Sequence record: OW849040.1
Length of the DNA: 56,641 bases
Reading direction: 5' to 3' (one strand)
DNA from: a plasmid
Every line of letters starts with the position of its first letter. Positions within the stretch are counted from its first letter, which is position 1. The notes under the pieces were generated by a model. The model saw only the letters and a list, made by a program, of their open reading frames with translations. It was not told where the DNA came from and ran no database searches. Shown in pieces: positions 1,845 through 56,560 of the stretch. Position numbers and translations under genes: made by a program.

Positions 1845-2165
1845 TTGTGTTATCCGTGGATTGTGCAGCTCAGCGGGTCGCTGGTCGTATGGCGTAGTGT
1901 CCCCCGTAACCGGCCGCGTGCGGCCGCTAACTCGCAGTACGGCGCCGCGACCCGAAGGCGGGCCGCCGTTCCCGCGCGCAGGCGCGCGGCGCCCACTGCG
2001 CACCCCCGTGGGGGACATACGGCAGCTGTGTGGCGGTGAGCGGGATTAGGGCTTTGCAGGGAGGGGGCTGGGTCGGGCGATACGTTCAGCATTGCGGTTT
2101 CCGGCGATTTGCGGCCGGTGCCCGTTTAACTCCGGCGTGGTCGCCTTCCATGCCCTGACGGCATA
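1845..2165 (+). repeat. GC-rich CUP-associated module (A segment plus P2 segment), promoter-less copy in opposite orientation to the leading-region copies
   Basis: 1845-2040 is the reverse complement of 45541-45740 and of 50884-51095. 2041-2165 matches the reverse complement of the P2 segment (ttccggcgatttgcggccggtg / gtcgccttccatgccctgacgg). The TTGACT/GATAAT promoter part is absent. Confidence 0.6.
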
Positions 2166-5244: not shown

Positions 5245-5367
5245 TGTCATTTTCAGAAGACGACTGCACCAGTTGATTGGGCGTAATGGCTGTTGTGCAG
5301 CCAGCTCCTGACAGTTCAATATCAGAAGTGATCTGCACCAATCTCGACTATGCTCAATACTCGTGTG
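5245..5367. repeat. 123-bp IRt-end fragment (IRt 5245-5269), inverted relative to the copy at 6248-6399
   Basis: Exact reverse-complement relationship with 6277-6399 read directly. Confidence 0.85.
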
Positions 5368-6247: not shown

Positions 6248-6399
6248 TCCGTCGCCATGCTCACCTCGCTTTGGTGCACACGAGTATTGAGCATAGTCGA
6301 GATTGGTGCAGATCACTTCTGATATTGAACTGTCAGGAGCTGGCTGCACAACAGCCATTACGCCCAATCAACTGGTGCAGTCGTCTTCTGAAAATGACA
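6248..6399. repeat. 152-bp IRt-end fragment ending in IRt (6375-6399). This is the In4-type structure of IS6100 flanked by inversely oriented 123-bp and 152-bp IRt ends
   Basis: 6277-6399 is the exact reverse complement of 5245-5367, and 6248-6276 extends it by 29 bp. Confidence 0.85.
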
Positions 6400-23442: not shown

Positions 23443-23624
23443 ATGGATTTAAACACTGCTGCAAACGCACTTCGAGAACTGGGCCACCCGACACGTCTCA
23501 GCATATACCGGGAGCTGGTCAGGGCGGGTCATGAAGGCCTGCCGGTTGGCGAACTGCAGAAGCACCTTGAGATTCCTGCCTCCACGCTCAGCCATCATCT
23601 TTCAGCGCTGATATCCGCTGGACG
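23443..23624 (+). pseudogene. ArsR/SmtB-family regulator gene, truncated by IS26 after about 60 codons. Upstream inverted repeat ATATTTC-N10-GAAATAT (23414-23437) is a likely operator
   Basis: HTH segment PTRLSIYRELVRAGHEGLPVGELQKHLEIPASTLSHHLSAL. The ORF runs into the IS26 IRL at 23625. Confidence 0.5.
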
Positions 23625-24443
23625 GCACTGTTGCAAATAGTCGGTGGTGATAAACTTATCATCCCCTTTTGCTGATGGAGCTGCACATGAACCCATTCAA
23701 AGGCCGGCATTTTCAGCGTGACATCATTCTGTGGGCCGTACGCTGGTACTGCAAATACGGCATCAGTTACCGTGAGCTGCAGGAGATGCTGGCTGAACGC
23801 GGAGTGAATGTCGATCACTCCACGATTTACCGCTGGGTTCAGCGTTATGCGCCTGAAATGGAAAAACGGCTGCGCTGGTACTGGCGTAACCCTTCCGATC
23901 TTTGCCCGTGGCACATGGATGAAACCTACGTGAAGGTCAATGGCCGCTGGGCGTATCTGTACCGGGCCGTCGACAGCCGGGGCCGCACTGTCGATTTTTA
24001 TCTCTCCTCCCGTCGTAACAGCAAAGCTGCATACCGGTTTCTGGGTAAAATCCTCAACAACGTGAAGAAGTGGCAGATCCCGCGATTCATCAACACGGAT
24101 AAAGCGCCCGCCTATGGTCGCGCGCTTGCTCTGCTCAAACGCGAAGGCCGGTGCCCGTCTGACGTTGAACACCGACAGATTAAGTACCGGAACAACGTGA
24201 TTGAATGCGATCATGGCAAACTGAAACGGATAATCGGCGCCACGCTGGGATTTAAATCCATGAAGACGGCTTACGCCACCATCAAAGGTATTGAGGTGAT
24301 GCGTGCACTACGCAAAGGCCAGGCCTCAGCATTTTATTATGGTGATCCCCTGGGCGAAATGCGCCTGGTAAGCAGAGTTTTTGAAATGTAAGGCCTTTGA
24401 ATAAGACAAAAGGCTGCCTCATCGCTAACTTTGCAACAGTGCC
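23625..24443 (+). mobile_element. IS26 (complete copy). No 8-bp target duplication (cgctggac vs ttttttcc), consistent with IS26-mediated rearrangement
   Basis: GGCACTGTTGCAAA ends at both termini. Tnp26 ORF intact. Confidence 0.9.
23687..24391 (+). CDS. tnp26: IS26 transposase Tnp26
   Basis: 234 aa MNPFKGRHFQRDIILWAVRWYCKYGISYRELQEMLAERGVNVDHSTIYRWVQRYAPEM... Confidence 0.9.
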   Translation: MNPFKGRHFQRDIILWAVRWYCKYGISYRELQEMLAERGVNVDHSTIYRWVQRYAPEMEKRLRWYWRNPSDLCPWHMDETYVKVNGRWAYLYRAVDSRGRTVDFYLSSRRNSKAAYRFLGKILNNVKKWQIPRFINTDKAPAYGRALALLKREGRCPSDVEHRQIKYRNNVIECDHGKLKRIIGATLGFKSMKTAYATIKGIEVMRALRKGQASAFYYGDPLGEMRLVSRVFEM

Positions 24444-31622: not shown

Positions 31623-32381
31623 CGTGAGTTTTCGTTCCACTGAGCGTCAGACCCCGGGATCACCATAATAAAATGCTGAGGCCTGGCCTTTGCGTAGTGC
31701 ACGCATCACCTCAATACCTTTGATGGTGGCGTAAGCCGTCTTCATGGATTTAAATCCCAGCGTGGCGCCGATTATCCGTTTCAGTTTGCCATGATCGCAT
31801 TCAATCACGTTGTTCCGGTACTTAATCTGTCGGTGTTCAACGTCAGACGGGCACCGGCCTTCGCGTTTGAGCAGAGCAAGCGCGCGACCATAGGCGGGCG
31901 CTTTATCCGTGTTGATGAATCGCGGGATCTGCCACTTCTTCACGTTGTTGAGGATTTTACCCAGAAACCGGTATGCAGCTTTGCTGTTACGACGGGAGGA
32001 GAGATAAAAATCGACAGTGCGGCCCCGGCTGTCGACGGCCCGGTACAGATACGCCCAGCGGCCATTGACCTTCACGTAGGTTTCATCCATGTGCCACGGG
32101 CAAAGATCGGAAGGGTTACGCCAGTACCAGCGCAGCCGTTTTTCCATTTCAGGCGCATAACGCTGAACCCAGCGGTAAATCGTGGAGTGATCGACATTCA
32201 CTCCGCGTTCAGCCAGCATCTCCTGCAGCTCACGGTAACTGATGCCGTATTTGCAGTACCAGCGTACGGCCCACAGAATGATGTCACGCTGAAAATGCCG
32301 GCCTTTGAATGGGTTCATGTGCAGCTCCATCAGCAAAAGGGGATGATAAGTTTATCACCACCGACTATTTGCAACAGTGCC

Positions 32382-42108: not shown

Positions 42109-42440
42109 TCAGTCCTCACATTGTGCATTTTTTAAACAAAAAATTGGGATCTAACAAGCTGAAATCTTAGTATTACCAAAGTAATAAAGCAAACTCATTA
42201 TAAAACAATGAGTTATTGGGTGTTTTTAATACCTAATTATTACCGAATATTGTTGCTATTTATTTTTTTATCTTTTAAATCAGTATGATAGCGTGATTTA
42301 TCGCGCTGCGTTAGGTGTATAGCAGGTTAAGGGATAAAAAATCATCTTTTTTGGTAGGGGCGATCTACGTAGGTTAAGGACTAACTGGCTAAAAAGCGTT
42401 CAATATTCCGTATTCATGCTTGCATGAATACCAGTACAAC
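42109..42440. other. Putative oriT region: AT-rich, inverted repeats AAACTCATT-N7-AATGAGTT (42194-42218) and GTATTCATGC-TT-GCATGAATAC (42408-42432)
   Basis: Position between traK and stbA as in R388/pKM101-type plasmids. The nic site could not be assigned. Confidence 0.45.
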
Positions 42441-42595
42441 AAAAGTACATCAAAATTACATCAAAATTACATCACTTGAAGGTTGACAGTACAACAAAAT
42501 TACATCATTCTTTGGTCATGAGGTAGCCAGTACAACAAAAGTACATCAAAAGTACATCAAAATTACATCAAAATTACATCATTCTAAATGAGGGT
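42425..42595 (+). promoter_or_regulatory. Two arrays of tandem 9-bp repeats (TACATCAAA[A/G]) upstream of stbA, likely StbA binding sites / stbA promoter
   Basis: agtacaacaaaagtacatcaaaattacatcaaaattacatca repeated twice with a shorter middle copy, read directly. Confidence 0.6.
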
Positions 42596-43744: not shown

Positions 43745-44113
43745 ATGGAAAAGCAGCCAGATAAATTTGAAGTTCTGATGGATTGGTTTTTAGGTGACGC
43801 GAAGGAAATCACCGCAAGTCAGAAAGAAATGACTGAGATACTTTCTGCGCTTTCGGAAAAGCTGGCAAAAGACACCGAAAGTTTAGGAGAGACGGCAGAC
43901 TCTCTTAAACGGACTTTAGTAGAAAACCAGCGTTCAATTAGCCTGGCAATTAGTGATGATGCTAAGGCGCGTGAGGAATTTCTGACGAAGTTCCGCCGCG
44001 CGCAGGCGTCCAGAGCTGAGACGTTAACCCGTCAGATCCTTTTTATTACAGCTGGCTGCACTATTGTGGGCGCCGCCGTGGGTGCCGCGATAGCCATAAT
44101 TCTACTGAGATAA
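43745..44113 (+). CDS. stbC: StbC-like small protein, C-terminal TM helix
   Basis: 122 aa, ATGG overlap with the stbB stop. Followed by terminator 44119-44142. Confidence 0.5.
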   Translation: MEKQPDKFEVLMDWFLGDAKEITASQKEMTEILSALSEKLAKDTESLGETADSLKRTLVENQRSISLAISDDAKAREEFLTKFRRAQASRAETLTRQILFITAGCTIVGAAVGAAIAIILLR

Positions 44114-44118
44114 TGTAA

Positions 44119-44142
44119 ACCGGGCATGTCCCGGTTTTTTTT
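44119..44142 (+). terminator. Rho-independent terminator ACCGGGCATGTCCCGGT plus T8
   Basis: Read directly. Confidence 0.75.
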
Positions 44143-44260
44143 CAAGCGAAGCGCGGAGGCCGCAGGCCGGAGGCATTAGTGGCCGCCGCCCGAAGGGGCG
44201 AGACGCGTAGCGGCTCGATGCGCAGCACGGCAGAACGGCCCCGCAGGGGTAATGCCCGGT
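44140..44260. repeat. GC-rich B-type repeat copy (B family. Other copies 45780-45960, 46400-46560, 51160-51290)
   Basis: Shared blocks gcggaggccgNaggccggaggc ... ggctcgatgcgcagcacNgcagaNcggcccc with compensatory hairpin variants. Confidence 0.7.
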
Positions 44261-44294
44261 TTAATTCAACGTGACAGTCACGTGGAGGAAAAAT

Positions 44295-44639
44295 ATGAAT
44301 GACCGACAGCGTGAACAAGCCCGTATTCGCCAGGCCCGGCGCCGCGCGCGACTCAAAGAGGAAGGCGCTAGCGTGACAGTCACGCTAACAAAACAGGAAG
44401 AAGCAATGTTACAGGAGCTTTGCCGGGTTCGTCGTCCAGGACGAACAGCCTATTCCACGAATGAGTTTTTCCAACTGCTGCTGATCCGAAACTGGCAACA
44501 GTGGCAGGAGCAAAAGGCGCAGCTGGGGAAATGCCAGGCTTGCGGAAAGCTGAAAGCGGAGGGAGGTTGCGGCGGCGAACGGCAGAGCGAAACCTTTAAC
44601 TGCTGGCTAGCCGTCGAAGCAAACGAGCTTAATGTGTAG
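44295..44639 (+). CDS. Small basic Cys-containing protein, likely DNA-binding autoregulator
   Basis: 114 aa from MNDRQREQARIRQARRRARLKEE behind GGAGG RBS. Palindrome ACGTGACAGTCACGT at 44269-44283 just upstream and again inside the gene at 44370-44386. Confidence 0.45.
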   Translation: MNDRQREQARIRQARRRARLKEEGASVTVTLTKQEEAMLQELCRVRRPGRTAYSTNEFFQLLLIRNWQQWQEQKAQLGKCQACGKLKAEGGCGGERQSETFNCWLAVEANELNV

Positions 44640-44710
44640 TGTATTGTGCTATACAGAAATTGCCAAAAGCAGCGCGGAGTAATAACTGAAACGGCCGCGC
44701 AGCGGAAAGA

Positions 44711-44739
44711 AAAAAGCCCGGTCAATCCGGGTTTTTTTC
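44711..44739. terminator. Bidirectional terminator AAAAAAGCCCGG-TCAAT-CCGGGTTTTTTT between convergent genes
   Basis: Read directly. Confidence 0.7.
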
Positions 44740-44749
44740 TTTCGGCGGC

Positions 44750-45070
44750 TCAGTAATCGTCTAGATCTCCGCAGCCCAGCGGGCAACAATTACGCTCAAT
44801 ACCGTGGCTGCAATAATCGTTTTCCCGATCCTGCCGGATTTCTTCCGCGATCTCGTCTTGGGTCAGATAGTCAAATTCACGCCGCGCTACCGCGATCAGT
44901 TCTTCCCGATACTCGGCCGGAACGCCAGCAAGATAGCCGTCAATAACCGCGCTCAGGCGGCGCTGATACAGTTCATAAATCAGGCCGCAGCGGGGCTGCT
45001 GTTCGCGCGCAAAACTCTCACACTGGCGACGAAAATCTTCAAGAGTCTGCTCAAGGGTTTGTGTGGTCAT
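44750..45070 (-). CDS. Hypothetical acidic protein with C-terminal Cys cluster (CSHGIERNCCPLGCGD)
   Basis: 106 aa. Second gene of the first CUP-driven transcript, after hairpin GACCCGGC-CAA-GCCGGGTC. Confidence 0.45.
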   Translation of the reverse strand: MTTQTLEQTLEDFRRQCESFAREQQPRCGLIYELYQRRLSAVIDGYLAGVPAEYREELIAVARREFDYLTQDEIAEEIRQDRENDYCSHGIERNCCPLGCGDLDDY

Positions 45071-45124
45071 GTCGTTTGTCCTCGATCTTTCTGTTAAAGA
45101 CCCGGCTTGGCCGGGTCGTCAGTG

Positions 45125-45304
45125 CTATTTAGTTTGTTGCAGCAGCTGGTCTAATTTTGCCGCCAGTGCATACGTCGATGTGAAAGCGCCTTGCAGGCGC
45201 TGATTAGGCAGCTGGTTGAACGCTTCGAGGCAGGCGCGCAGCAATAATTCTTTCTGAGATTCGACTTCTTTTTTCAGCTGGGAAGGGGTGGTAACAGTGG
45301 TCAT
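45125..45304 (-). CDS. 59-aa hypothetical protein directly behind a CUP promoter copy
   Basis: MTTVTTPSQLKKEVESQKELLLRACLEAFNQLPNQRLQGAFTSTYALAAKLDQLLQQTK. AGGAG RBS. Not in the ORF track because under 60 aa. Confidence 0.45.
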   Translation of the reverse strand: MTTVTTPSQLKKEVESQKELLLRACLEAFNQLPNQRLQGAFTSTYALAAKLDQLLQQTK

Positions 45305-45960
45305 GCTTACTCCTTAGTGATCCGATACCGGCAATTTTTCGGGTGGCGGTATTGCCTCCCGATGATTTAATTATCGGTGATTACGCCTTTAAAGTCAATA
45401 CAAGTACGGAATTTATTTACATGTTTTTATGCCCGTCAGGGCATGGAAGGCGACCGCGCCGGACTCCACCGGACACCGGCCGCAAATCGCCGGAAACTGC
45501 GGGACTGACCGGAGCAACAGGCCAACCCCCCTTCCTGCTAAGCCATAACCCAGCCCGCCGCCACGCAGCTGCCGCACGTCCCCCACGGGGGTGCGCAGTG
45601 GGCGCCGCGCGCCTGCGCGCGGGTACGGCGGCCCGCCTGCGGGTCGCGGCGCCGTACTGCGAGTTAGCGGCCGCCGCGCGGCCGGTTACGGGGGACACCG
45701 CACCGTCACGGCCAGCGCCCCGCTGAGCTGCACAATCCACGGATAACACAATAGCGCACTGGCAAAGGATGCCGACGCCTGAAGGGCGTTGGCACCCCGA
45801 AGGGGCGGGGCGGCCGCTTGCGGCCGGGCGAGTCCGGCGCAGGGTGTGGCCTGCCAAGCGGAGCGCGGAGGCCGAAGGCCGGAGGCGTTAGCGGCCGCTG
45901 CCCGCGTAAGCGGGGCGAGACGGGAACCGGCTCGATGCGCAGCACAGCAGAGCGGCCCCG
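45305..45960 (-). repeat. Full CUP-like module: P1 promoter/operator (TTGACT-N17-GATAAT at 45370-45398 on minus strand, palindrome CCGATGATTTAATTATCGG), P2 GC-rich segment, A repeat (45541-45740), B repeat (45780-45960)
   Basis: P1 recurs at 46990-47100, 47485-47555 (partial), 48205-48432, 52680-52915 and 56100-56170, each directly 5-prime of a minus-strand gene. Confidence 0.7.
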
Positions 45961-46070
45961 AAGGGGTAACGCCCTGTGTGGCATCAGGATTTAGCACAAT
46001 GTCAGAACATAAACTGGAGAGATCACCGGCAAGCAGCTGCAAAGGGGCGGCACAGCCGCCCCGATGGCTG

Positions 46071-46178
46071 TTACTTGTCTTTGTCGCGTAGCACTTTGAT
46101 TAGGCCGGTTACGGCCGTAATCAGAGCGGCCAGCGAGGTGATGATTTGCGGTAGGTTTTCGAGGATGGTAGAGGTCAT
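46071..46178 (-). CDS. Candidate 35-aa hydrophobic peptide (MTSTILENLPQIITSLAALITAVTGLIKVLRDKDK)
   Basis: Short ORF with one predicted TM helix and a charged tail, downstream of a perfect 16-bp inverted repeat. Coding status unproven. Confidence 0.25.
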   Translation of the reverse strand: MTSTILENLPQIITSLAALITAVTGLIKVLRDKDK

Positions 46179-46399
46179 ATAGCACCTGTAGAGAAGTTGG
46201 CGGGGTGTCGTTTCCGACGGCCGCACTGTAACCGGGCGAATAAGGCAGGTTGTCAACAGCTTGAGCGAAGCGTCTGTTGACAACCTGCCGCGCCCGGTTT
46301 CACTGCGGTCATAGGCGGAACGACCCACGCCAACGGAACGGCTTTATGACCGGGCAGCTGAGATACCGGCGAACCTGGCTGGCGGCTGACGCCAGCCGC

Positions 46400-46560
46400 C
46401 AAGCGCCAGCGCGGAGGGCGAAGCCCGGAGGCCAAGCGGAGCGCGGAGGCCGAAGGCCGGAGGCGTTAGCGGCCGCTGCCCGCGTAAGCGGGGCGAGACG
46501 GGAACCGGCTCGATGCGCAGCACAGCAGAGCGGCCCCGAAGGGGTAACGCCCGGAGTCTG
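46400..46560. repeat. B-type GC-rich repeat copy
   Basis: Near-identical to 45800-45960. Confidence 0.7.
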
Positions 46561-46655
46561 CCGCTGTTTATCTCTCGTTCCATCTGAAATCGGCGGTAAG
46601 GCCATTAAAAGGGTCAGTTTATCAGGGGGGCGTTAGCCCCCCATGTTGTTAATCA

Positions 46656-46988
46656 TCAGGCAATATCGTCTTTGTAGCAGGCATAACCGAAGCTAAGCTC
46701 TGTTTTCATATAGTGGCGGGCAAAGTCCCAGGCATCGTGGCCGAAGTCCTCATAATCTGCCAGGACGATTTCGCGGGCTTTGTGCCATTGCTGTACGGAA
46801 GAAAGCGGCAGAACAGGGCAGGGAAGCGACCAGTCAGTGACGGTGTTGCAGATCATATCTGCCAGACGCTCCAGGGAGCCGTAAACCAGCTCTGTGCGCA
46901 GATCCGCCACCATGCGTTGTTTACGCAGTGATGCCAGATAATCAATCTCTTTGGTTATATCAGAATTTAAGCGGGTCTGGTAATCCAT
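46656..46988 (-). CDS. Hypothetical 110-aa protein (CUP-driven)
   Basis: AAGGAG RBS. Promoter TTGACT-N17-GATAAT at 47055-47083. Confidence 0.5.
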   Translation of the reverse strand: MDYQTRLNSDITKEIDYLASLRKQRMVADLRTELVYGSLERLADMICNTVTDWSLPCPVLPLSSVQQWHKAREIVLADYEDFGHDAWDFARHYMKTELSFGYACYKDDIA

Positions 46989-47196
46989 GATGTACTCCTT
47001 TGCGCGCCGATACCGGCAATTTTGCGGGCGACGGTGTTGCCTCCCGATGATTTAATTATCGGTGATTATGTCCTCAAAGTCAATATAAGTACTGAATGTG
47101 CATACAAAATTTTATATCTTGCAAAGCGTTCATAGAGTGCCTGAATCGCTTTCTGACAGCCTCAATAAAAAAGGCGGGGATTACCCGCCTTTTTTC

Positions 47197-47481
47197 TTAC
47201 AGCTGCTTACGTGGCTTTTTACGCGTCATATACAACGGTATCGCGCAGTCTACCGCGTACAAAAAGCACGCCAGCGCGCCGCAACCGTACAGAAACGCAA
47301 GCGGCTTATTATCGAAGTAGCTGAAAACCCCTGTCGCCGCACACAGGCCCAGAACAGAGACGCAGGCGCAGGTGATCTGCACCAGATCCCTGTATCCCGC
47401 ACGAACGATAAACCAGGGCAGGGCAAGCGCAGCGGCGCTAAAAATTAATGCGAGAGGGACAAAAACGAGATAGTGATACAT
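47197..47481 (-). CDS. Small membrane protein (94 aa, three hydrophobic segments)
   Basis: Behind a partial P1 operator/leader copy (47485-47555) that lacks the -35 part. Confidence 0.45.
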   Translation of the reverse strand: MYHYLVFVPLALIFSAAALALPWFIVRAGYRDLVQITCACVSVLGLCAATGVFSYFDNKPLAFLYGCGALACFLYAVDCAIPLYMTRKKPRKQL

Positions 47482-47549
47482 GTGAACTCCTTGATGGTTG
47501 CCGATACCGGCGATTGTTCGGGCGGCGGTATTGCCACCCGATGATTTAA

Positions 47550-47909
47550 TTAGAGGTTTTGCGCGTCCAGGAGATTGACCTGAGCCGGGGTAACGTGAAA
47601 CTTTTCCCCTTTATGGATCACGTTATGCGGGGCGCTAATTTCATCACTGATAAAGCTAACCGGGTAACGTTTTTTACCGCAAATCCGCTCGCTAAACCAC
47701 GCCACTTTTGCCGCTGGCCGATCCACTGGATGAACAATCACACCGGCCATGCTGCAACCCGTTGCGGGTTCGTCCAGCGTAATGCTTACCGGGACTGTAT
47801 CCCGGTAAAAAAACTTAACCGGCGGCACACCTGCCTGCGTAGCGGCTGCGACAACTGCAAGCCCGATAACCGCTATCCGATTAATAAGCATTTTATTCCC
47901 CTTACTCAT
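47550..47909 (-). CDS. Secreted/periplasmic 119-aa protein
   Basis: Signal peptide MLINRIAVIGLAVVAAATQA. Overlaps the stop of the upstream gene (47906). Confidence 0.45.
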   Translation of the reverse strand: MSKGNKMLINRIAVIGLAVVAAATQAGVPPVKFFYRDTVPVSITLDEPATGCSMAGVIVHPVDRPAAKVAWFSERICGKKRYPVSFISDEISAPHNVIHKGEKFHVTPAQVNLLDAQNL

Positions 47910-48202
47910 GCTGATATCACCTTGCCAGCTGTTACCAGTTTACGAAATTCGCTTTCATGAATTTCACGCCCATGCTCAAGCGTTGAATACACGTTGCCGA
48001 TAAGCCAGTTACCAGCCGTTTTTGTCTCGGTATACCACCATGCTTCTGTCAGAGTAAGCAGCGGTTCGCTATCCTCGCCCTTCTCATAGATCCAGATTTT
48101 AGTGACGTCTTTACCCGTTTCGTTGCTGCCCTGAATGGTAGGGTCAAAGGTATGTTCAATCTCTATATCGAAGTAACGCTGAAGGAAGTTAGTAAAGTGC
48201 AT
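47906..48202 (-). CDS. Hypothetical 98-aa cytoplasmic protein (CUP-driven, first gene of a three-gene unit)
   Basis: Start MHFTNF behind AGGAG RBS. The ORF track extends to 48232. Confidence 0.45.
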   Translation of the reverse strand: MHFTNFLQRYFDIEIEHTFDPTIQGSNETGKDVTKIWIYEKGEDSEPLLTLTEAWWYTETKTAGNWLIGNVYSTLEHGREIHESEFRKLVTAGKVISA

Positions 48203-48204
48203 GA

Positions 48205-48432
48205 CGACTCCTGTAAGCGCCGATACCGGCAATTTTTCGGGTGGCGGTGTTGCCTCCCGATGATTTAATTATCGGTGATTACGCCTTTAAAGTCAATACA
48301 AGTACGGAATTTATTTACATGTTTTTATGCCCGTCAGGGCATGGAAGGCGACCGCGCCGGACTCCACCGGACACCGGCCGCAAATCGCCGGAAACTGCGG
48401 GACTGACCGGAGCAACAGGCCAACCCCCCTTC
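48205..48432 (-). repeat. CUP-like module copy (P1 plus P2) truncated at its distal end by the 48433-50883 insertion
   Basis: Identical to 45305-45530 up to ...ccccccttcct, then diverges. Confidence 0.7.
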
Positions 48433-48658
48433 CTTGTATCTAACAGTTTGTGGTGATTAGCTACCACCACTGAAGCAGAGTGAGCCGCCCCCTTCCCTTA
48501 AGGTCAGAAAAGTCTGCACCGCTGAACCTTGTTTAGCAGCATATGGCCCTCCGCTTCACCTTTCACGCCAGCACATCAGGTTGAACGGTTACCGGGAGCT
48601 CGACTCCGTATGTACAAGGCGAACAGGCGTGACGGTTTATGTGAGAGGAGTTTAACCA

Positions 48659-49653
48659 TGTTTCCAGTCGGCATTGACGTAAGTAAAAACACCCTGGATC
48701 TTTGCATGCTTTATGACGGTATCAAAGGACGCATAAAAACCCGTAACATCCAAAATAACAGACATTCAGTTGAAAATATTCTTCGCTGGCTCAGGCTCCA
48801 GCACTGCGGTCCGGAAGATGTTCATGTGGTGATGGAGGCTACCGGGGTTTATCACGAACGGCTGGCTACTGAGTTACATGATGCTGGTTTCTATGTCTCT
48901 CTGGCCAACCCTCACCGTAGCAGAGAGTTTGCACGCGGCATGGGAATAATGACAAAAACGGATAAGGTGGATGCGTATATGCTGGCCTGCTACGCATTCC
49001 TTAAGAACCCTCACCGCTGGGAGCCGCCGGCACCCGAAATCAGATATCTCGGTGCACTCCTGCGACGGCGGGATGTTCTGCTGGGTGATGCCCTGCGTGA
49101 GGAGAACAGGCTGGAGAAATACCTGTCCACAGACACACCTGCAGATATTATCAGTTCCTGCATGCATATGGCGCAGCTGCTGCGCGACGAGGTAAGCAAT
49201 ATCGAGCGGCAGATTAAAGCGCATATCAAAGCCAGCCCTGCACTGAGGCGTGATTATACACTTCTGACCTCAATTAAATCTGTTGGCCCCCAGCTGGGAA
49301 TGCATATGCTGGTCGTGCTTCGCAGCCATGACTTTTCATCAGCTGAGCAGGCTGCCGCCTTTCTGGGCGTGGTGCCGATCGAGAAACGTTCAGGCACATC
49401 GGTCCGGAGCCGGCCCCGGATGTCGAAAATCGGTCCGCCTCAGTTGAGAGCGAAGCTTTACATGTCTGCGCTGTGCGGAAAAATCTACAATAAGCGGATG
49501 CGTAATATTTACGACGAGATGTGCCTGCGGGGTAAACCTAAAATGGTGGCCATTGGTGCGCTGATGCGGAAACTGGTGCACTGGTGTTATGGCGTCCTGA
49601 AGACCGGAATCGTTTTTAATGATGAAGGCCTGAAACAAGTACTGTCAACCTGA
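48659..49653 (+). CDS. IS110-family (DEDD) transposase
   Basis: 331 aa from MFPVGIDVSKNTLDLCML with N-terminal DEDD-type RuvC-like domain and C-terminal helix-hairpin-helix region typical of IS110/IS1111 transposases. GAGG RBS. Confidence 0.75.
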
Positions 49654-49788
49654 CTGTACCAGGTGGCACTAAACACAAAATAACGCTCGCTGCAGTAAGT
49701 GAGCGCAGTCTGCTATGAGCGAATAGCTGACATTCAGCTTCCGCTTATGAGTAGAATAATGGCTTTAGAGAAATGAGGAATCTGAACT

Positions 49789-50424
49789 TTATATAAAATC
49801 CTTTAACTCCTCAGCATTAATGTTCGCCAGCATTGAAGCTTTCAAGTTTGGGGATGATGCGAGATACCTCGAGATCAGGTTGAATCCTGCGGTATATCCT
49901 AGCCACCTGGGCAAATTTCCTGTTCCGAAAAACCAGGCATTATGGTCGTAATCAGTGCGATGCCAGTTTTCAAGCATTTGTGGATAGTAGGGCTGAATAG
50001 TATCGGAATGGAGGCTTTCCCAAGGCTCAGGTTCACCACCAAAAAGCTCAATAGAAAAATGCCCGGCAAGCCCTTCTGAGACTAACACCTCTCCCAACGT
50101 TGAGCCATATCCCGGCCCTGTCCACCTAACTGCATGGTGCAGTTCATGCACAAACATTCGTTCAATAGAGTGCGCATCATTTTTGCAAAATGCAGAATTT
50201 TCAGGATCAACAGTTATATAGATAACGCCAGCTTCAGGGCAAAAACCAAGATGCCCTTTTTCCGGGATGACAAACTTCCCAGCTTTAACCACCACATCCA
50301 GTGAATGAATCGGCATTAACCTTTTGGCTTGTTCGTAGGTATCAGTCAGGTTTATTTGAAGCCATTCACAGTGAGCGGTGAGTTTCTTCTGCGCATTCAG
50401 AATGTGGAGATTCATTTGAGACAT
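49789..50424 (-). CDS. HExxH zinc-metallopeptidase-like protein (Mpr-like)
   Basis: 211 aa with HELHHAVRW motif. Function inferred from motif only. Confidence 0.5.
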   Translation of the reverse strand: MSQMNLHILNAQKKLTAHCEWLQINLTDTYEQAKRLMPIHSLDVVVKAGKFVIPEKGHLGFCPEAGVIYITVDPENSAFCKNDAHSIERMFVHELHHAVRWTGPGYGSTLGEVLVSEGLAGHFSIELFGGEPEPWESLHSDTIQPYYPQMLENWHRTDYDHNAWFFGTGNLPRWLGYTAGFNLISRYLASSPNLKASMLANINAEELKDFI

Positions 50425-50883
50425 TACGGTACCACGCCAAAAGCGTCACTAAATCGCCACACATTAACACACAAAGCGAATGTCATGGTGTTGCTCAACA
50501 GTTGAGGGCCAAACCATTAACAGCAATGTCCGCATTTGGCACAAAGCAGACATTAAAGACTACAGCATCGGATGCCGCGTTAGCGGCATGGAGGCGCCAG
50601 ATGAAGCTGCATGTATCTGTGGAGTCAAATGGCGCCGAAAGCCCGGCGTAGCCGGTTACCTGGCTATAAATTCTGCCACCCTCCCCCCTGCCCTGATTAG
50701 CCTTAACCCGCTTACAGCACTGAAGAAGTTAAAGTAATCCCTTTTAACCCCGGTGAGCGGGCTTTACGGCGTTTACGACGTAAAGGGCGTGATTTCCGGG
50801 GCCTTAGCGGCGGCAGCTTGCTGCTGACGCTTAGGGGGATGTTCTTCAGTTATTTCAGCAACACCAGGGAACTTAACACGGTA

Positions 50884-51290
50884 GCTGCTAAGCCATAACC
50901 CAGCCCGCCGCCACGCAGCTGCCGCACGTCCCCCACGGGGGTGCGCAGTGGGCGCCGCGCGCCTGCGCGCGGGTACGGCGGCCCGCCTGCGGGTCGCGGC
51001 GCCGTACTGCGAGTTAGCGGCCGCCGCGCGGCCGGTTACGGGGGACACCGCACCGTCACGGCCAGCGCCCCACTGAGCTGCACAATCCACGGATAATGCA
51101 GGAGACGAATCATGATAGGAGGCTGAAGGGGAAATGAGCGGCAGCAGGGGAAGGGGTTGCCAAGCGGAGCGCGGAGGCCGCAGGCCGGAGGCGTCAGTGG
51201 CAGCTGCCCGCGTGAGCGGGGCGAGACGCGTAGCGGCTCGATGCGCAGCACAGCAGAACGGCCCCGGAGGGGTGACGTCCGGGGGTTCGC
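50884..51290. repeat. A-type (50884-51095) and B-type (51160-51290) GC-rich repeat copies
   Basis: A copy about 98 percent identical to 45541-45740. Confidence 0.7.
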
Positions 51291-51309
51291 TTTTAAAGAT
51301 TTTCGACCA

Positions 51310-56447: not shown

Positions 56448-56560
56448 TCTCTGGGAATCCGCCCACCTTGTTATGGGAATTGGCCCACCTATCTATGGGA
56501 AACACCCCACCTTACTATGGGAATTAGCCCACCTTGTTATGGGAATTGGCCCACCTTAGA
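56448..56560 (+). repeat. Five direct 22-bp repeats (gggaattggcccaccttgttat consensus), iteron- or centromere-like, preceded by an AT-rich stretch
   Basis: Exact 22-bp phasing read directly. The cognate gene is presumably beyond the window end. Confidence 0.7.

Follow-up and report, generated by a model that had tools for sequence, protein, structure and literature searches.

The closest described counterparts of the element analyzed here are sites linked to the priming of DNA synthesis on a single strand. The primosome assembly site (pas) of phage phiX174 is the place at which the PriA primosome is assembled (PMC5778457), and the n'-pas sites of ColE1 are known as ssiA and ssiB (PMC3167613). 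The transferred strand of ColE1 is believed to be primed at its pas, and the single-strand origin sso1 of the integrative and conjugative element (ICE) ICEBs1 is required for acquisition (PMC4595007). Priming of the entering strand of the F plasmid takes place repeatedly, and hairpins on it serve as primers or roadblocks (bioRxiv 10.64898/2026.01.09.698686). The present work concerns the leading region of an IncN1 (R46/pKM101-type) plasmid, examined in a stretch of 56,641 nucleotides (nt) from sequence record OW849040.1, hereafter the window, and the two GC-rich repeat families, A and B, interspersed in it, both of which an earlier reading of the letters alone (the original prediction) had described as hairpin elements with compensatory changes. 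Our analysis strongly supports that family B is a structured nucleic-acid element and not coding sequence. The sequence data further suggest, at what we judge to be even chances, that B, situated ahead of leading-region operons, serves as a single-strand initiation site or as an origin for the complementary strand.

Both a repeat search and a covariance model place exactly four copies of family B in the window, all of them on the plus strand (E-values 5e-17 to 9e-13; Table 1), although these model matches arise partly by construction, since near-identical copies from a sister plasmid are present in the training alignment. The count of four had been anticipated by the original prediction, whose limits for B2 and B3 were shifted by a 5' extension of the former and a tandem half-copy preceding the latter. 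The copies have a G+C content of 70-75% and comprise 5-6 short hairpins with GNA loops. Their 5' motif, which reads CAAGCGAAGCGCGG in B1 (44143-44156), lies at 45855-45868 in B2 and at 51161-51174 in B4; AAGCGG is present in B2-B4, and B4 carries GTGAGCG in the loop of one of its hairpins (Pb). B3 is 98% identical to B2, and B4 is 88% identical to it, with the stem changes compensated. The stem of the half-copy likewise presents a compensated change with respect to GGCC/GGCC, and the 5' extension adjoins B also in a divergent IncN-type plasmid (L005), where its stems are altered and still pair. The long open reading frames (ORFs) that cross the repeats had been dismissed as artefacts, and so they appear to be: a Pfam search of five ORFs across A and B returned no match, RefSeq annotates no coding sequence there, and a 5-nt indel separates the copies. 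Less accurate was the statement that the repeats always lie upstream of the promoters in the CUP (conserved upstream) repeats, reportedly described in IncN plasmids by Delver and Belogurov in 1997. The order B-A-CUP holds for B2, but a 2.45 kb block intervenes between the B4-A pair and its CUP, the small ORF that B3 precedes is devoid of CUP, and B1 is located between the plus-strand genes stbC and orfD. In several subfamilies, GGCAAGCG is immediately preceded on the plus strand by a short GC hairpin, by 4-8 consecutive T residues or by both, as at 44117-44142 of the window (the stbC terminator in IncN) and in loci L031, L018 and L021.

The fold of B, an element of 120-170 nt, consists of six helices, namely Pa, a long-range helix P1 that closes a multi-branch loop, Pb, an outer and an inner Pc, and Pd. 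True compensatory changes are already apparent among the window copies, in keeping with the earlier observation that stems are conserved while loops vary: CGC-GTA-GCG in B1 and B4 becomes CGG-GAA-CCG in B2 and B3, GGCC-GNA-GGCC alternates with GGGC-GAA-GCCC, and the long-range helix reads GGCATTA/TAATGCC in B1, GGCGTTA/TAACGCC in B2 and B3 and GGCGTCA/TGACGTC in B4. Helices were defined on 84 diverse aligned copies, from which covariance model R1 was built; RNAalifold applied to a MAFFT alignment recovered the structure only in part, with the variable hairpins gapped, and a hand-specified structure was used instead with the covariance model. In the model-fitted alignment (139 distinct rows), 93.2% of cells are paired, as opposed to 77.0% in shuffled alignments, 26 of 28 pairs vary on either side of the helix, and the cells changed on both sides number 420 versus 127. 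The covariation score reaches 0.289 against a shuffled value of 0.079, with none of 500 shuffles attaining the observed value, and sliding the structure along the alignment yields 36-43% pairing and scores of at most 0.05. The structure-blind alignment obtained with MAFFT alone (84 rows) gives 91.9% paired cells versus 84.2% in shuffles, changes on both sides in 16 of 28 pairs (124 cells versus 36.5), and a score of 0.156 versus 0.058, which is again reached by 0 of 500 shuffles and compares with at most 0.033 in slid controls. A covariation analysis, a kind of check that the original prediction had called for, thus reveals conserved pairing across B copies, far above both kinds of control.

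A result absent from that prediction is that B is a widespread and unannotated family, not specific to IncN. Among the listed matches to an exact pattern of its core in contigs sampled at one genome per species, more than 118 genome stretches were retrieved from Beta- and Gammaproteobacteria, with hosts that include Variovorax, Comamonas, Hydrogenophaga, Thauera, Aromatoleum, Pseudomonas, Stutzerimonas, Xanthomonas, Stenotrophomonas and Burkholderia. Matching plasmid records number 1057-1360, and the 1057 returned by the B query include Pseudomonas plasmids. Model R1 identifies 152 copies in 99 sources, with many loci harboring 2-4 copies, always on one strand. The common long form of the element spans about 165 nt, and IncN plasmids carry a short form. 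A full-text literature search for the core sequence found no paper. In ICE-like loci, genes coding for DUF932, RadC and DUF2958 proteins lie on the 5' side of B, on the opposite strand and 130-300 nt away, with YhcG and DUF736 genes on the other side. An apparent adjacency of DUF2958 to 89 of 126 copies was rejected, as it arose from spurious ORFs that traverse the conserved element. About 12 of the 31 core matches in IMG/VR are true elements, and these matches are uninformative with regard to double-stranded DNA phages, since the sole contig with identifiable neighbors (L127) encodes plasmid- or ICE-like genes (SRAP, UmuC, PLD). Two further observations pertain to the distribution of the family. 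Draft contigs often start or stop inside a B element (L024, L040, L041, L054, L009, L092, L118), a frequent assembly breakpoint that points to multiple copies in Aromatoleum, Pseudomonas, Oxalicibacterium and others. In IncI-gamma/K1 plasmids (L003, 3999-4119), a single B1-type copy, 86% identical to the query, has moved together with the start of orfD into unrelated Escherichia coli plasmids, some 2 kb from sul2.

The hairpins of B are markedly asymmetric between strands. Almost all of them are C-GNA-G triloops, often in the exact form GCGNAGC with a varying N, and GNA triloops closed by a C:G pair are a DNA-stability motif; Hirao and co-workers are said to have characterized d(GCGNAGC) as "extraordinarily stable" DNA mini-hairpins. 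Across the 139 distinct copies, C-GNA-G motifs occur 539 times on the plus strand of the element and 7 times on the minus strand, with a shuffle expectation of 58, and the corresponding figures for GCGNAGC are 336 and 6. Each copy carries 2-3 exact heptamers and about four C-GNA-G triloops overall (B1 has seven C-GNA-G mini-hairpins on the plus strand and none on the other), and within the window such clusters are found only in the B copies and on the plus strand. The juxtapositions at helix ends are similarly skewed, with 94 instances of G(5')-A(3') versus 3 of T-C. The polarity of B follows that of conjugative transfer. The gene for the type IV coupling protein sits directly across the origin of transfer (oriT) from the studied region, which we therefore take to be the leading region. 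If the transferred strand (T-strand) is taken to be the one that, read 5' to 3' from oriT, leads away from the relaxase operon and into the leading region, then B lies on the predicted T-strand in 12 of 12 copies across four backbones (4/4 in the IncN1 window, 4/4 in PCN061p4, 3/3 in pCCBH28525_KPC and 1/1 in pDC3000A). Neighboring genes are co-directional for B1, for the copy following stbC in PCN061p4 and for one pCCBH28525 copy, and are antisense to the rest; the constancy of the B strand, whatever the orientation of its neighbors, argues against a transcript-level function tied to local genes. Leading regions alone contain copies, as a rule 130-600 nt upstream of an operon of that region, and none is found in transfer (tra) or replication modules. 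Covariation, strand-asymmetric hairpins and orientation on the T-strand all fit the suggestion in the original prediction that B might act as single-stranded DNA (ssDNA) during conjugative entry.

A motif at the 5' end of B is in addition shared with ssDNA phages. AAGCGG is the hexamer of n' sites, and it provided the lead for inspecting phiX174, the F-G intergenic region of which contains CCAAGCGAAGCGCGGTAGG, matching the 5' motif of B1 at 14 of 14 positions and those of B2-B4 at 14 of 15, as well as GAAGCGG. The local alignment to phiX174 surpasses 500 dinucleotide shuffles (p 0.002-0.004), and does so on the viral strand only. ColE1 contains CCGAGCGTAGCGAG followed by GTGAGCGAGGAAGCGG, and the former agrees with the module CCGAGCGGAGCGAG of long-form B at 13 of 14 positions (p=0.014). 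In IMG/VR, the 18-nt pattern CAAGCGNAGCGCGGNAGG was found in 86 stretches, versus 29 for its reversed control, and in contigs of up to 9.5 kb the figures are 28 and 7. In small contigs, the pattern is on the dominant coding strand in 33 instances and on the other in 9, often in intergenic DNA and beside a hairpin, and of 10 small contigs tested, 6 have as their largest ORF one for a hallmark protein of Microviridae or Inoviridae. A BLAST search of phage records with the 32-nt 5' end of B returned only chance matches. On inspection of individual phage loci, CAAGCGNAGCGCGGNAGG is seen in the intergenic DNA of diverse Microviridae and Inoviridae (L166, L167, L197, L207, L215, L235 and others), on the coding strand and usually just 3' of a hairpin; in L226 and L233, B-like modules (GGCC-GAA-GGCC; TAGGGATTGAAG) come after it.

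Structure, strand, position and shared motifs being established for B, priming is the step that we infer, and it may be envisaged as follows. The T-strand would enter with its 5' end first, so that each leading operon would arrive just ahead of its B copy. B would then fold and thereby escape the single-stranded DNA-binding protein coating the remainder of the strand, and in its folded state it would recruit the priming machinery of the host, most plausibly a PriA-type primosome as at the phiX174 pas and ColE1 ssiA. The new strand would be extended back toward oriT, through A, CUP and the genes, and the CUP promoters would quickly become duplex and could fire before ArdK accumulates, resulting in early expression of establishment and anti-restriction genes. 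Family A would have no part in the proposed device. Several points weigh against this proposal. The similarity to phiX174 and ColE1 is confined to modules of 13-15 nt, and a model of the whole element scores just 6 bits on phiX174. The placement of the F-G motif in or next to the PriA primosome site of phiX174, and of ssiA at positions 1328-1375 of ColE1, is presumptive. The enrichment in IMG/VR is only about threefold, and some matches are due to chance. The T-strand was deduced from the geometry of relaxase and oriT in four plasmid backbones of related style, and mismatches do not discriminate between strands (73 G-T versus 57 A-C). Moreover, the minimum free energy of single B copies, computed with DNA parameters on both strands, is no better than that of shuffled sequences (z -0.2 to -1.4), in a test that is uninformative at 70-80% G+C; because folding energies match those of shuffles, the support for the structure of B comes from covariation and not from energy.

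The covariation itself does not separate RNA from ssDNA, and B might thus be a structured RNA, acting in cis from the gene strand, as a leader or a 3' element, or produced from the plus strand as an antisense or small RNA, and controlling leading-region genes. The position of B in ICEs, in intergenic DNA ahead of genes for DUF932, RadC and DUF2958 proteins, is compatible with this explanation, as are its GNRA-like loops (GTAA, GTGA, GAGA). We nonetheless regard it as unlikely, because the orientation of B tracks transfer polarity and not local transcription. The IncN copies are flanked by a terminator-like hairpin belonging to one operon and by the promoter belonging to the next, and no promoter-like site is apparent 5' of B on the plus strand. 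The lack of a preference for G-U over A-C (73 vs 57) would be unusual for a functional RNA, and the C:G-closed GNA triloops are a motif of DNA stability. Rfam, its radC motif and mobile-element-associated motifs included, yielded no relevant match on either strand in the window (E<=1), in 16 related loci (gathering score) or in locus L056 (E<=10).

Orientation on the T-strand, upstream of genes for which that strand is the template, would also be expected of a new class of single-strand promoter, at which RNA polymerase would start on the folded T-strand to produce messenger RNA, a primer or both, as do Frpo and ssi in F and ColIb-P9. Classes of ssDNA promoter other than Frpo have recently been found in IncI1 and IncF plasmids (PMC12672017), and Frpo transcripts also prime DNA synthesis (bioRxiv 10.64898/2026.01.09.698686). 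The Frpo-like role entertained in the original prediction is nevertheless not borne out, since B lacks hexamers resembling -35 and -10 elements (TTGACA/TATAAT) within or across its hairpins, and a promoter scan of 43900-47200 detected none in B, returning only the CUP promoters and one site at 44666. B is made up of many short hairpins of 70-75% G+C and not of one long stem mimicking a promoter, the genes are 130-600 nt away from it, beyond an ordinary and strong promoter (CUP), and the plus-strand neighbors of B1 cannot be transcribed from the T-strand. We accordingly deem a promoter role quite improbable. A separate candidate, a sigma-70 promoter in GATTGAAG (TTGAAG/TTGACG), was rejected for lack of a -10 hexamer at the right spacing.

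The dense array of GCGNAGC-type mini-hairpins, present on the T-strand only, might instead form a single-strand barrier or insulator that stalls complementary-strand synthesis or exonucleases, and so delays or compartmentalizes conversion of the leading region. A precedent exists in the ssp2 hairpin of F, a roadblock resolved by UvrD (bioRxiv 10.64898/2026.01.09.698686). Such a barrier, however, would leave unexplained both the long conserved unpaired segments of B (GGCTCGATGCGCAGCACGACAGCGCG, CAAGCGNAGCGCG) and the motif shared with phage complementary-strand origins, and, situated upstream of a double-strand promoter, it would hold back expression of the adjacent operon instead of helping it. 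We view this explanation as very improbable.

Family A differs from B in most of these respects. The original prediction was right in that its repeats are real, two of them being identical and direct and one inverted, but the compensatory changes claimed for them could not be substantiated, as the copies differ at few positions, where the changes either disrupt pairs or affect loops, and fold energies show no signal against shuffles (z +0.36 and +0.95 for A). The inverted copy is 87-95% complementary, so that A is not locked to the orientation of the T-strand, and the family was found only in IncN1 and IncR plasmids, at identities of at least 84%. A is continuous with CUP at two places in the window (45302-45746 and 1845-2161) and at a third in a typical IncN plasmid, and it seems to represent the distal segment of the long CUP repeat, duplicated together with CUP. 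One copy had been described as the target of an IS110-family insertion. An insertion-like block is indeed present, but the break falls at the junction between CUP (48435) and A copy 2 (50887), and the 2451-bp unit combines an IS110-family transposase gene with a DUF2268 peptidase gene. This block recurs with its junctions, as a unit beside A-like DNA, in Klebsiella plasmids; as a unit it occurs in Klebsiella pneumoniae plasmids of 70-77 kb, and part of it matches more than 4000 plasmid records, mostly from Klebsiella; the DNA just left of A copy 2 (50760-50884) flanks A in an IncR plasmid too. Because the junctions occur in Klebsiella and the left flank in IncR, recombination through A is as likely as targeted insertion. 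The notion that A and B are both selfish or neutral GC-rich repeats, whether similar to repetitive extragenic palindromes (REP) and miniature inverted-repeat transposable elements or duplications spread by recombination, and without function, probably applies to A (at least 84% identity, IncN1 and IncR only, no compensated changes, no fold signal) and accords with the rearrangements promoted here, such as a loss of ardA consistent with recombination between B copies, but for B we find it barely credible, given a structure that numerous compensated changes have preserved among the elements of Beta- and Gammaproteobacteria, a strictly uniform orientation, confinement to the leading regions of mobile elements at a low number of 1-4 copies per element, which also speaks against the REP-like mobile repeat initially contemplated, and the lack of any associated transposase or RAYT, the only insertion sequence (IS) in the region being unrelated to B.

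The IncN1 plasmid further carries 37-bp iterons at 698-1887, stbABC on the plus strand ending at 44113 and, on the minus strand from 44.7 to 52.7 kb, the CUP-controlled regulon, which comprises ccgAII, ccgAI, ccgC, ccgD, ardR, ardB and others (Table 1). Typical IncN plasmids, pKp1050-4 for one, contain ardA and about 1.35 kb that are missing here (window 45746-46431 versus L001 4600-6140); the end points of the missing segment fall in two B copies, and CP021899 has the same arrangement without ardA. A near-perfect long hairpin at 46229-46297 (CCGGGCG..AGGCAGGTTGTCAACAG-[CTTGAGCGAAGCGT]-CTGTTGACAACCTGCC..CGCCCGG) is located between B3 and a 35-aa ORF (46074-46178, minus strand). It contains TTGACA in its arms and a GCGAAGC mini-hairpin in its apical loop on the plus strand, Rfam returned only a spurious microRNA match for it, and it could be an operator palindrome or a further T-strand structure. 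Arrays of 11-bp repeats (AAAGTACATCA-like) at 42420-42592, just upstream of stbA and near oriT, and 22-bp repeats at the end of the window (56449-56556) are probably protein-binding iterons. Perfect inverted repeats of 726 nt (23624-24349 / 31656-32381) and 123 nt (5245-5367 / 6277-6399) in the accessory region are probably IS copies flanking a resistance segment.

Table 1. Coordinates in the window of the family A and B repeats and of associated features (CM, covariance model score).
Feature	Position	Strand	Support
B1, adjoining the terminator hairpin and T-run of stbC, ahead of orfD	44141..44261	+	CM 90.4 bits, E 5e-17
B2 5' extension, IncN lineage; extra hairpins CCCC-GAA-GGGG and GGCCGC-TT-GCGGCC	45785..45852	+	kept in L005
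B2, upstream of A and the CUP promoter of ccgAI/ccgAII	45853..45978	+	CM 73.1 bits; D4, D8, D9
Tandem half-copy of the B 5' end (CAAGCGCCAGCGCGG and GGGC-GAA-GCCC hairpin)	46400..46430	+	sequence reading, alignment
B3, upstream (gene strand) of long hairpin and 35-aa ORF	46431..46556	+	CM 69.5 bits; D4
B4, upstream of A copy 2	51159..51296	+	CM 71.7 bits
A copy 1, contiguous with the CUP repeat of ccgAI (45302-45536)	45535..45746	+	D6
A copy 2, left flank 50760-50884 not CUP	50885..51096	+	212 nt, 100% identical to copy 1
Inverted A copy and distal 104 nt of CUP, beside 37-bp iterons	1845..2161	-	I2, I4, I7, I9; alignment
CUP repeat, promoter TTGACT-17-GATAAT (45398 to 45370) driving ccgAI	45302..45536	-	repeat families D2, D5, D11; promoter scan
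2.45 kb (2451-bp) block, IS110-family transposase and DUF2268 peptidase gene	48436..50886	.	junction comparison

The interest of a single-strand initiation role for B lies in that the switching-on of establishment and anti-defence genes, and the conversion of the entering strand, are poorly understood in elements without Frpo, such as IncN-type backbones and many GC-rich ICEs. More than 1000 sequenced plasmids, carbapenemase-carrying IncN plasmids among them, and many ICEs contain B, which would provide a recognizable and testable handle on these processes, as well as an orientation marker for predicting the T-strand and the leading region from sequence alone; family A is relevant only as a recombination substrate. 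More tentatively, and with a likelihood that we place clearly short of even, B may represent an unrecognized and widespread class of complementary-strand origin, with a CAAGCGNAGCGCG(G) core common to Microviridae and Inoviridae and to proteobacterial conjugative plasmids and ICEs. Its several copies, each just upstream of a leading-region operon, would promote host-primed synthesis and so activate ordinary double-strand promoters operon by operon on entry, as an alternative to Frpo for broad-host-range, GC-rich elements. If true, this would amount to a common origin module linking conjugative elements and ssDNA phages.

Compared with known systems, B shares with Frpo and ssi1-3 of F and ColIb-P9, and with the class 2-3 ssDNA promoters of pESBL, a location on the T-strand of the leading region in several copies. 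Frpo-type promoters, too, lie upstream of establishment and anti-defence genes, and their transcripts can prime the complementary strand, but Frpo is one long, A+T-containing hairpin that rebuilds a -35/-10 promoter, whereas B is a set of short hairpins of 70-75% G+C with a double-strand promoter downstream. The single-strand origins (sso) of rolling-circle replicating plasmids and the sso1 of ICEBs1 are orientation-specific folded ssDNA elements that direct second-strand synthesis and improve acquisition (PMC4595007); in contrast to B, they belong to Gram-positive families, depend mostly on RNA polymerase, are usually found in one copy and bear no sequence relation to it. Within IncN plasmids, CUP is physically continuous with A and has the same distribution over the regulon, whereas B is separate from it and far more widespread; this applies to CUP as delimited in this plasmid, and the boundaries published in 1997 may already include A or B. 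The d(GCGNAGC) mini-hairpins are a physical-chemical motif and not a genetic element, and would contribute to B as parts of its fold. The phiX174 pas and the ColE1 n'-pas resemble B in being hairpin-based and in acting on ssDNA in one orientation, which for B is suggested by the strand data. phiX174 and B have CAAGCGAAGCGCGG and AAGCGG in common, and ColE1 and B share CCGAGCGNAGCGAG, GTGAGCG and AAGCGG. Unlike either, B is longer and multi-branched, possesses an invariant core of its own (GGCTCGATGCGCAGCAC) that is absent from both, and occurs in multiple copies confined to conjugative leading regions. On sequence grounds the balance is level as to whether B constitutes a new, widespread variant of these single-strand initiation and origin elements.

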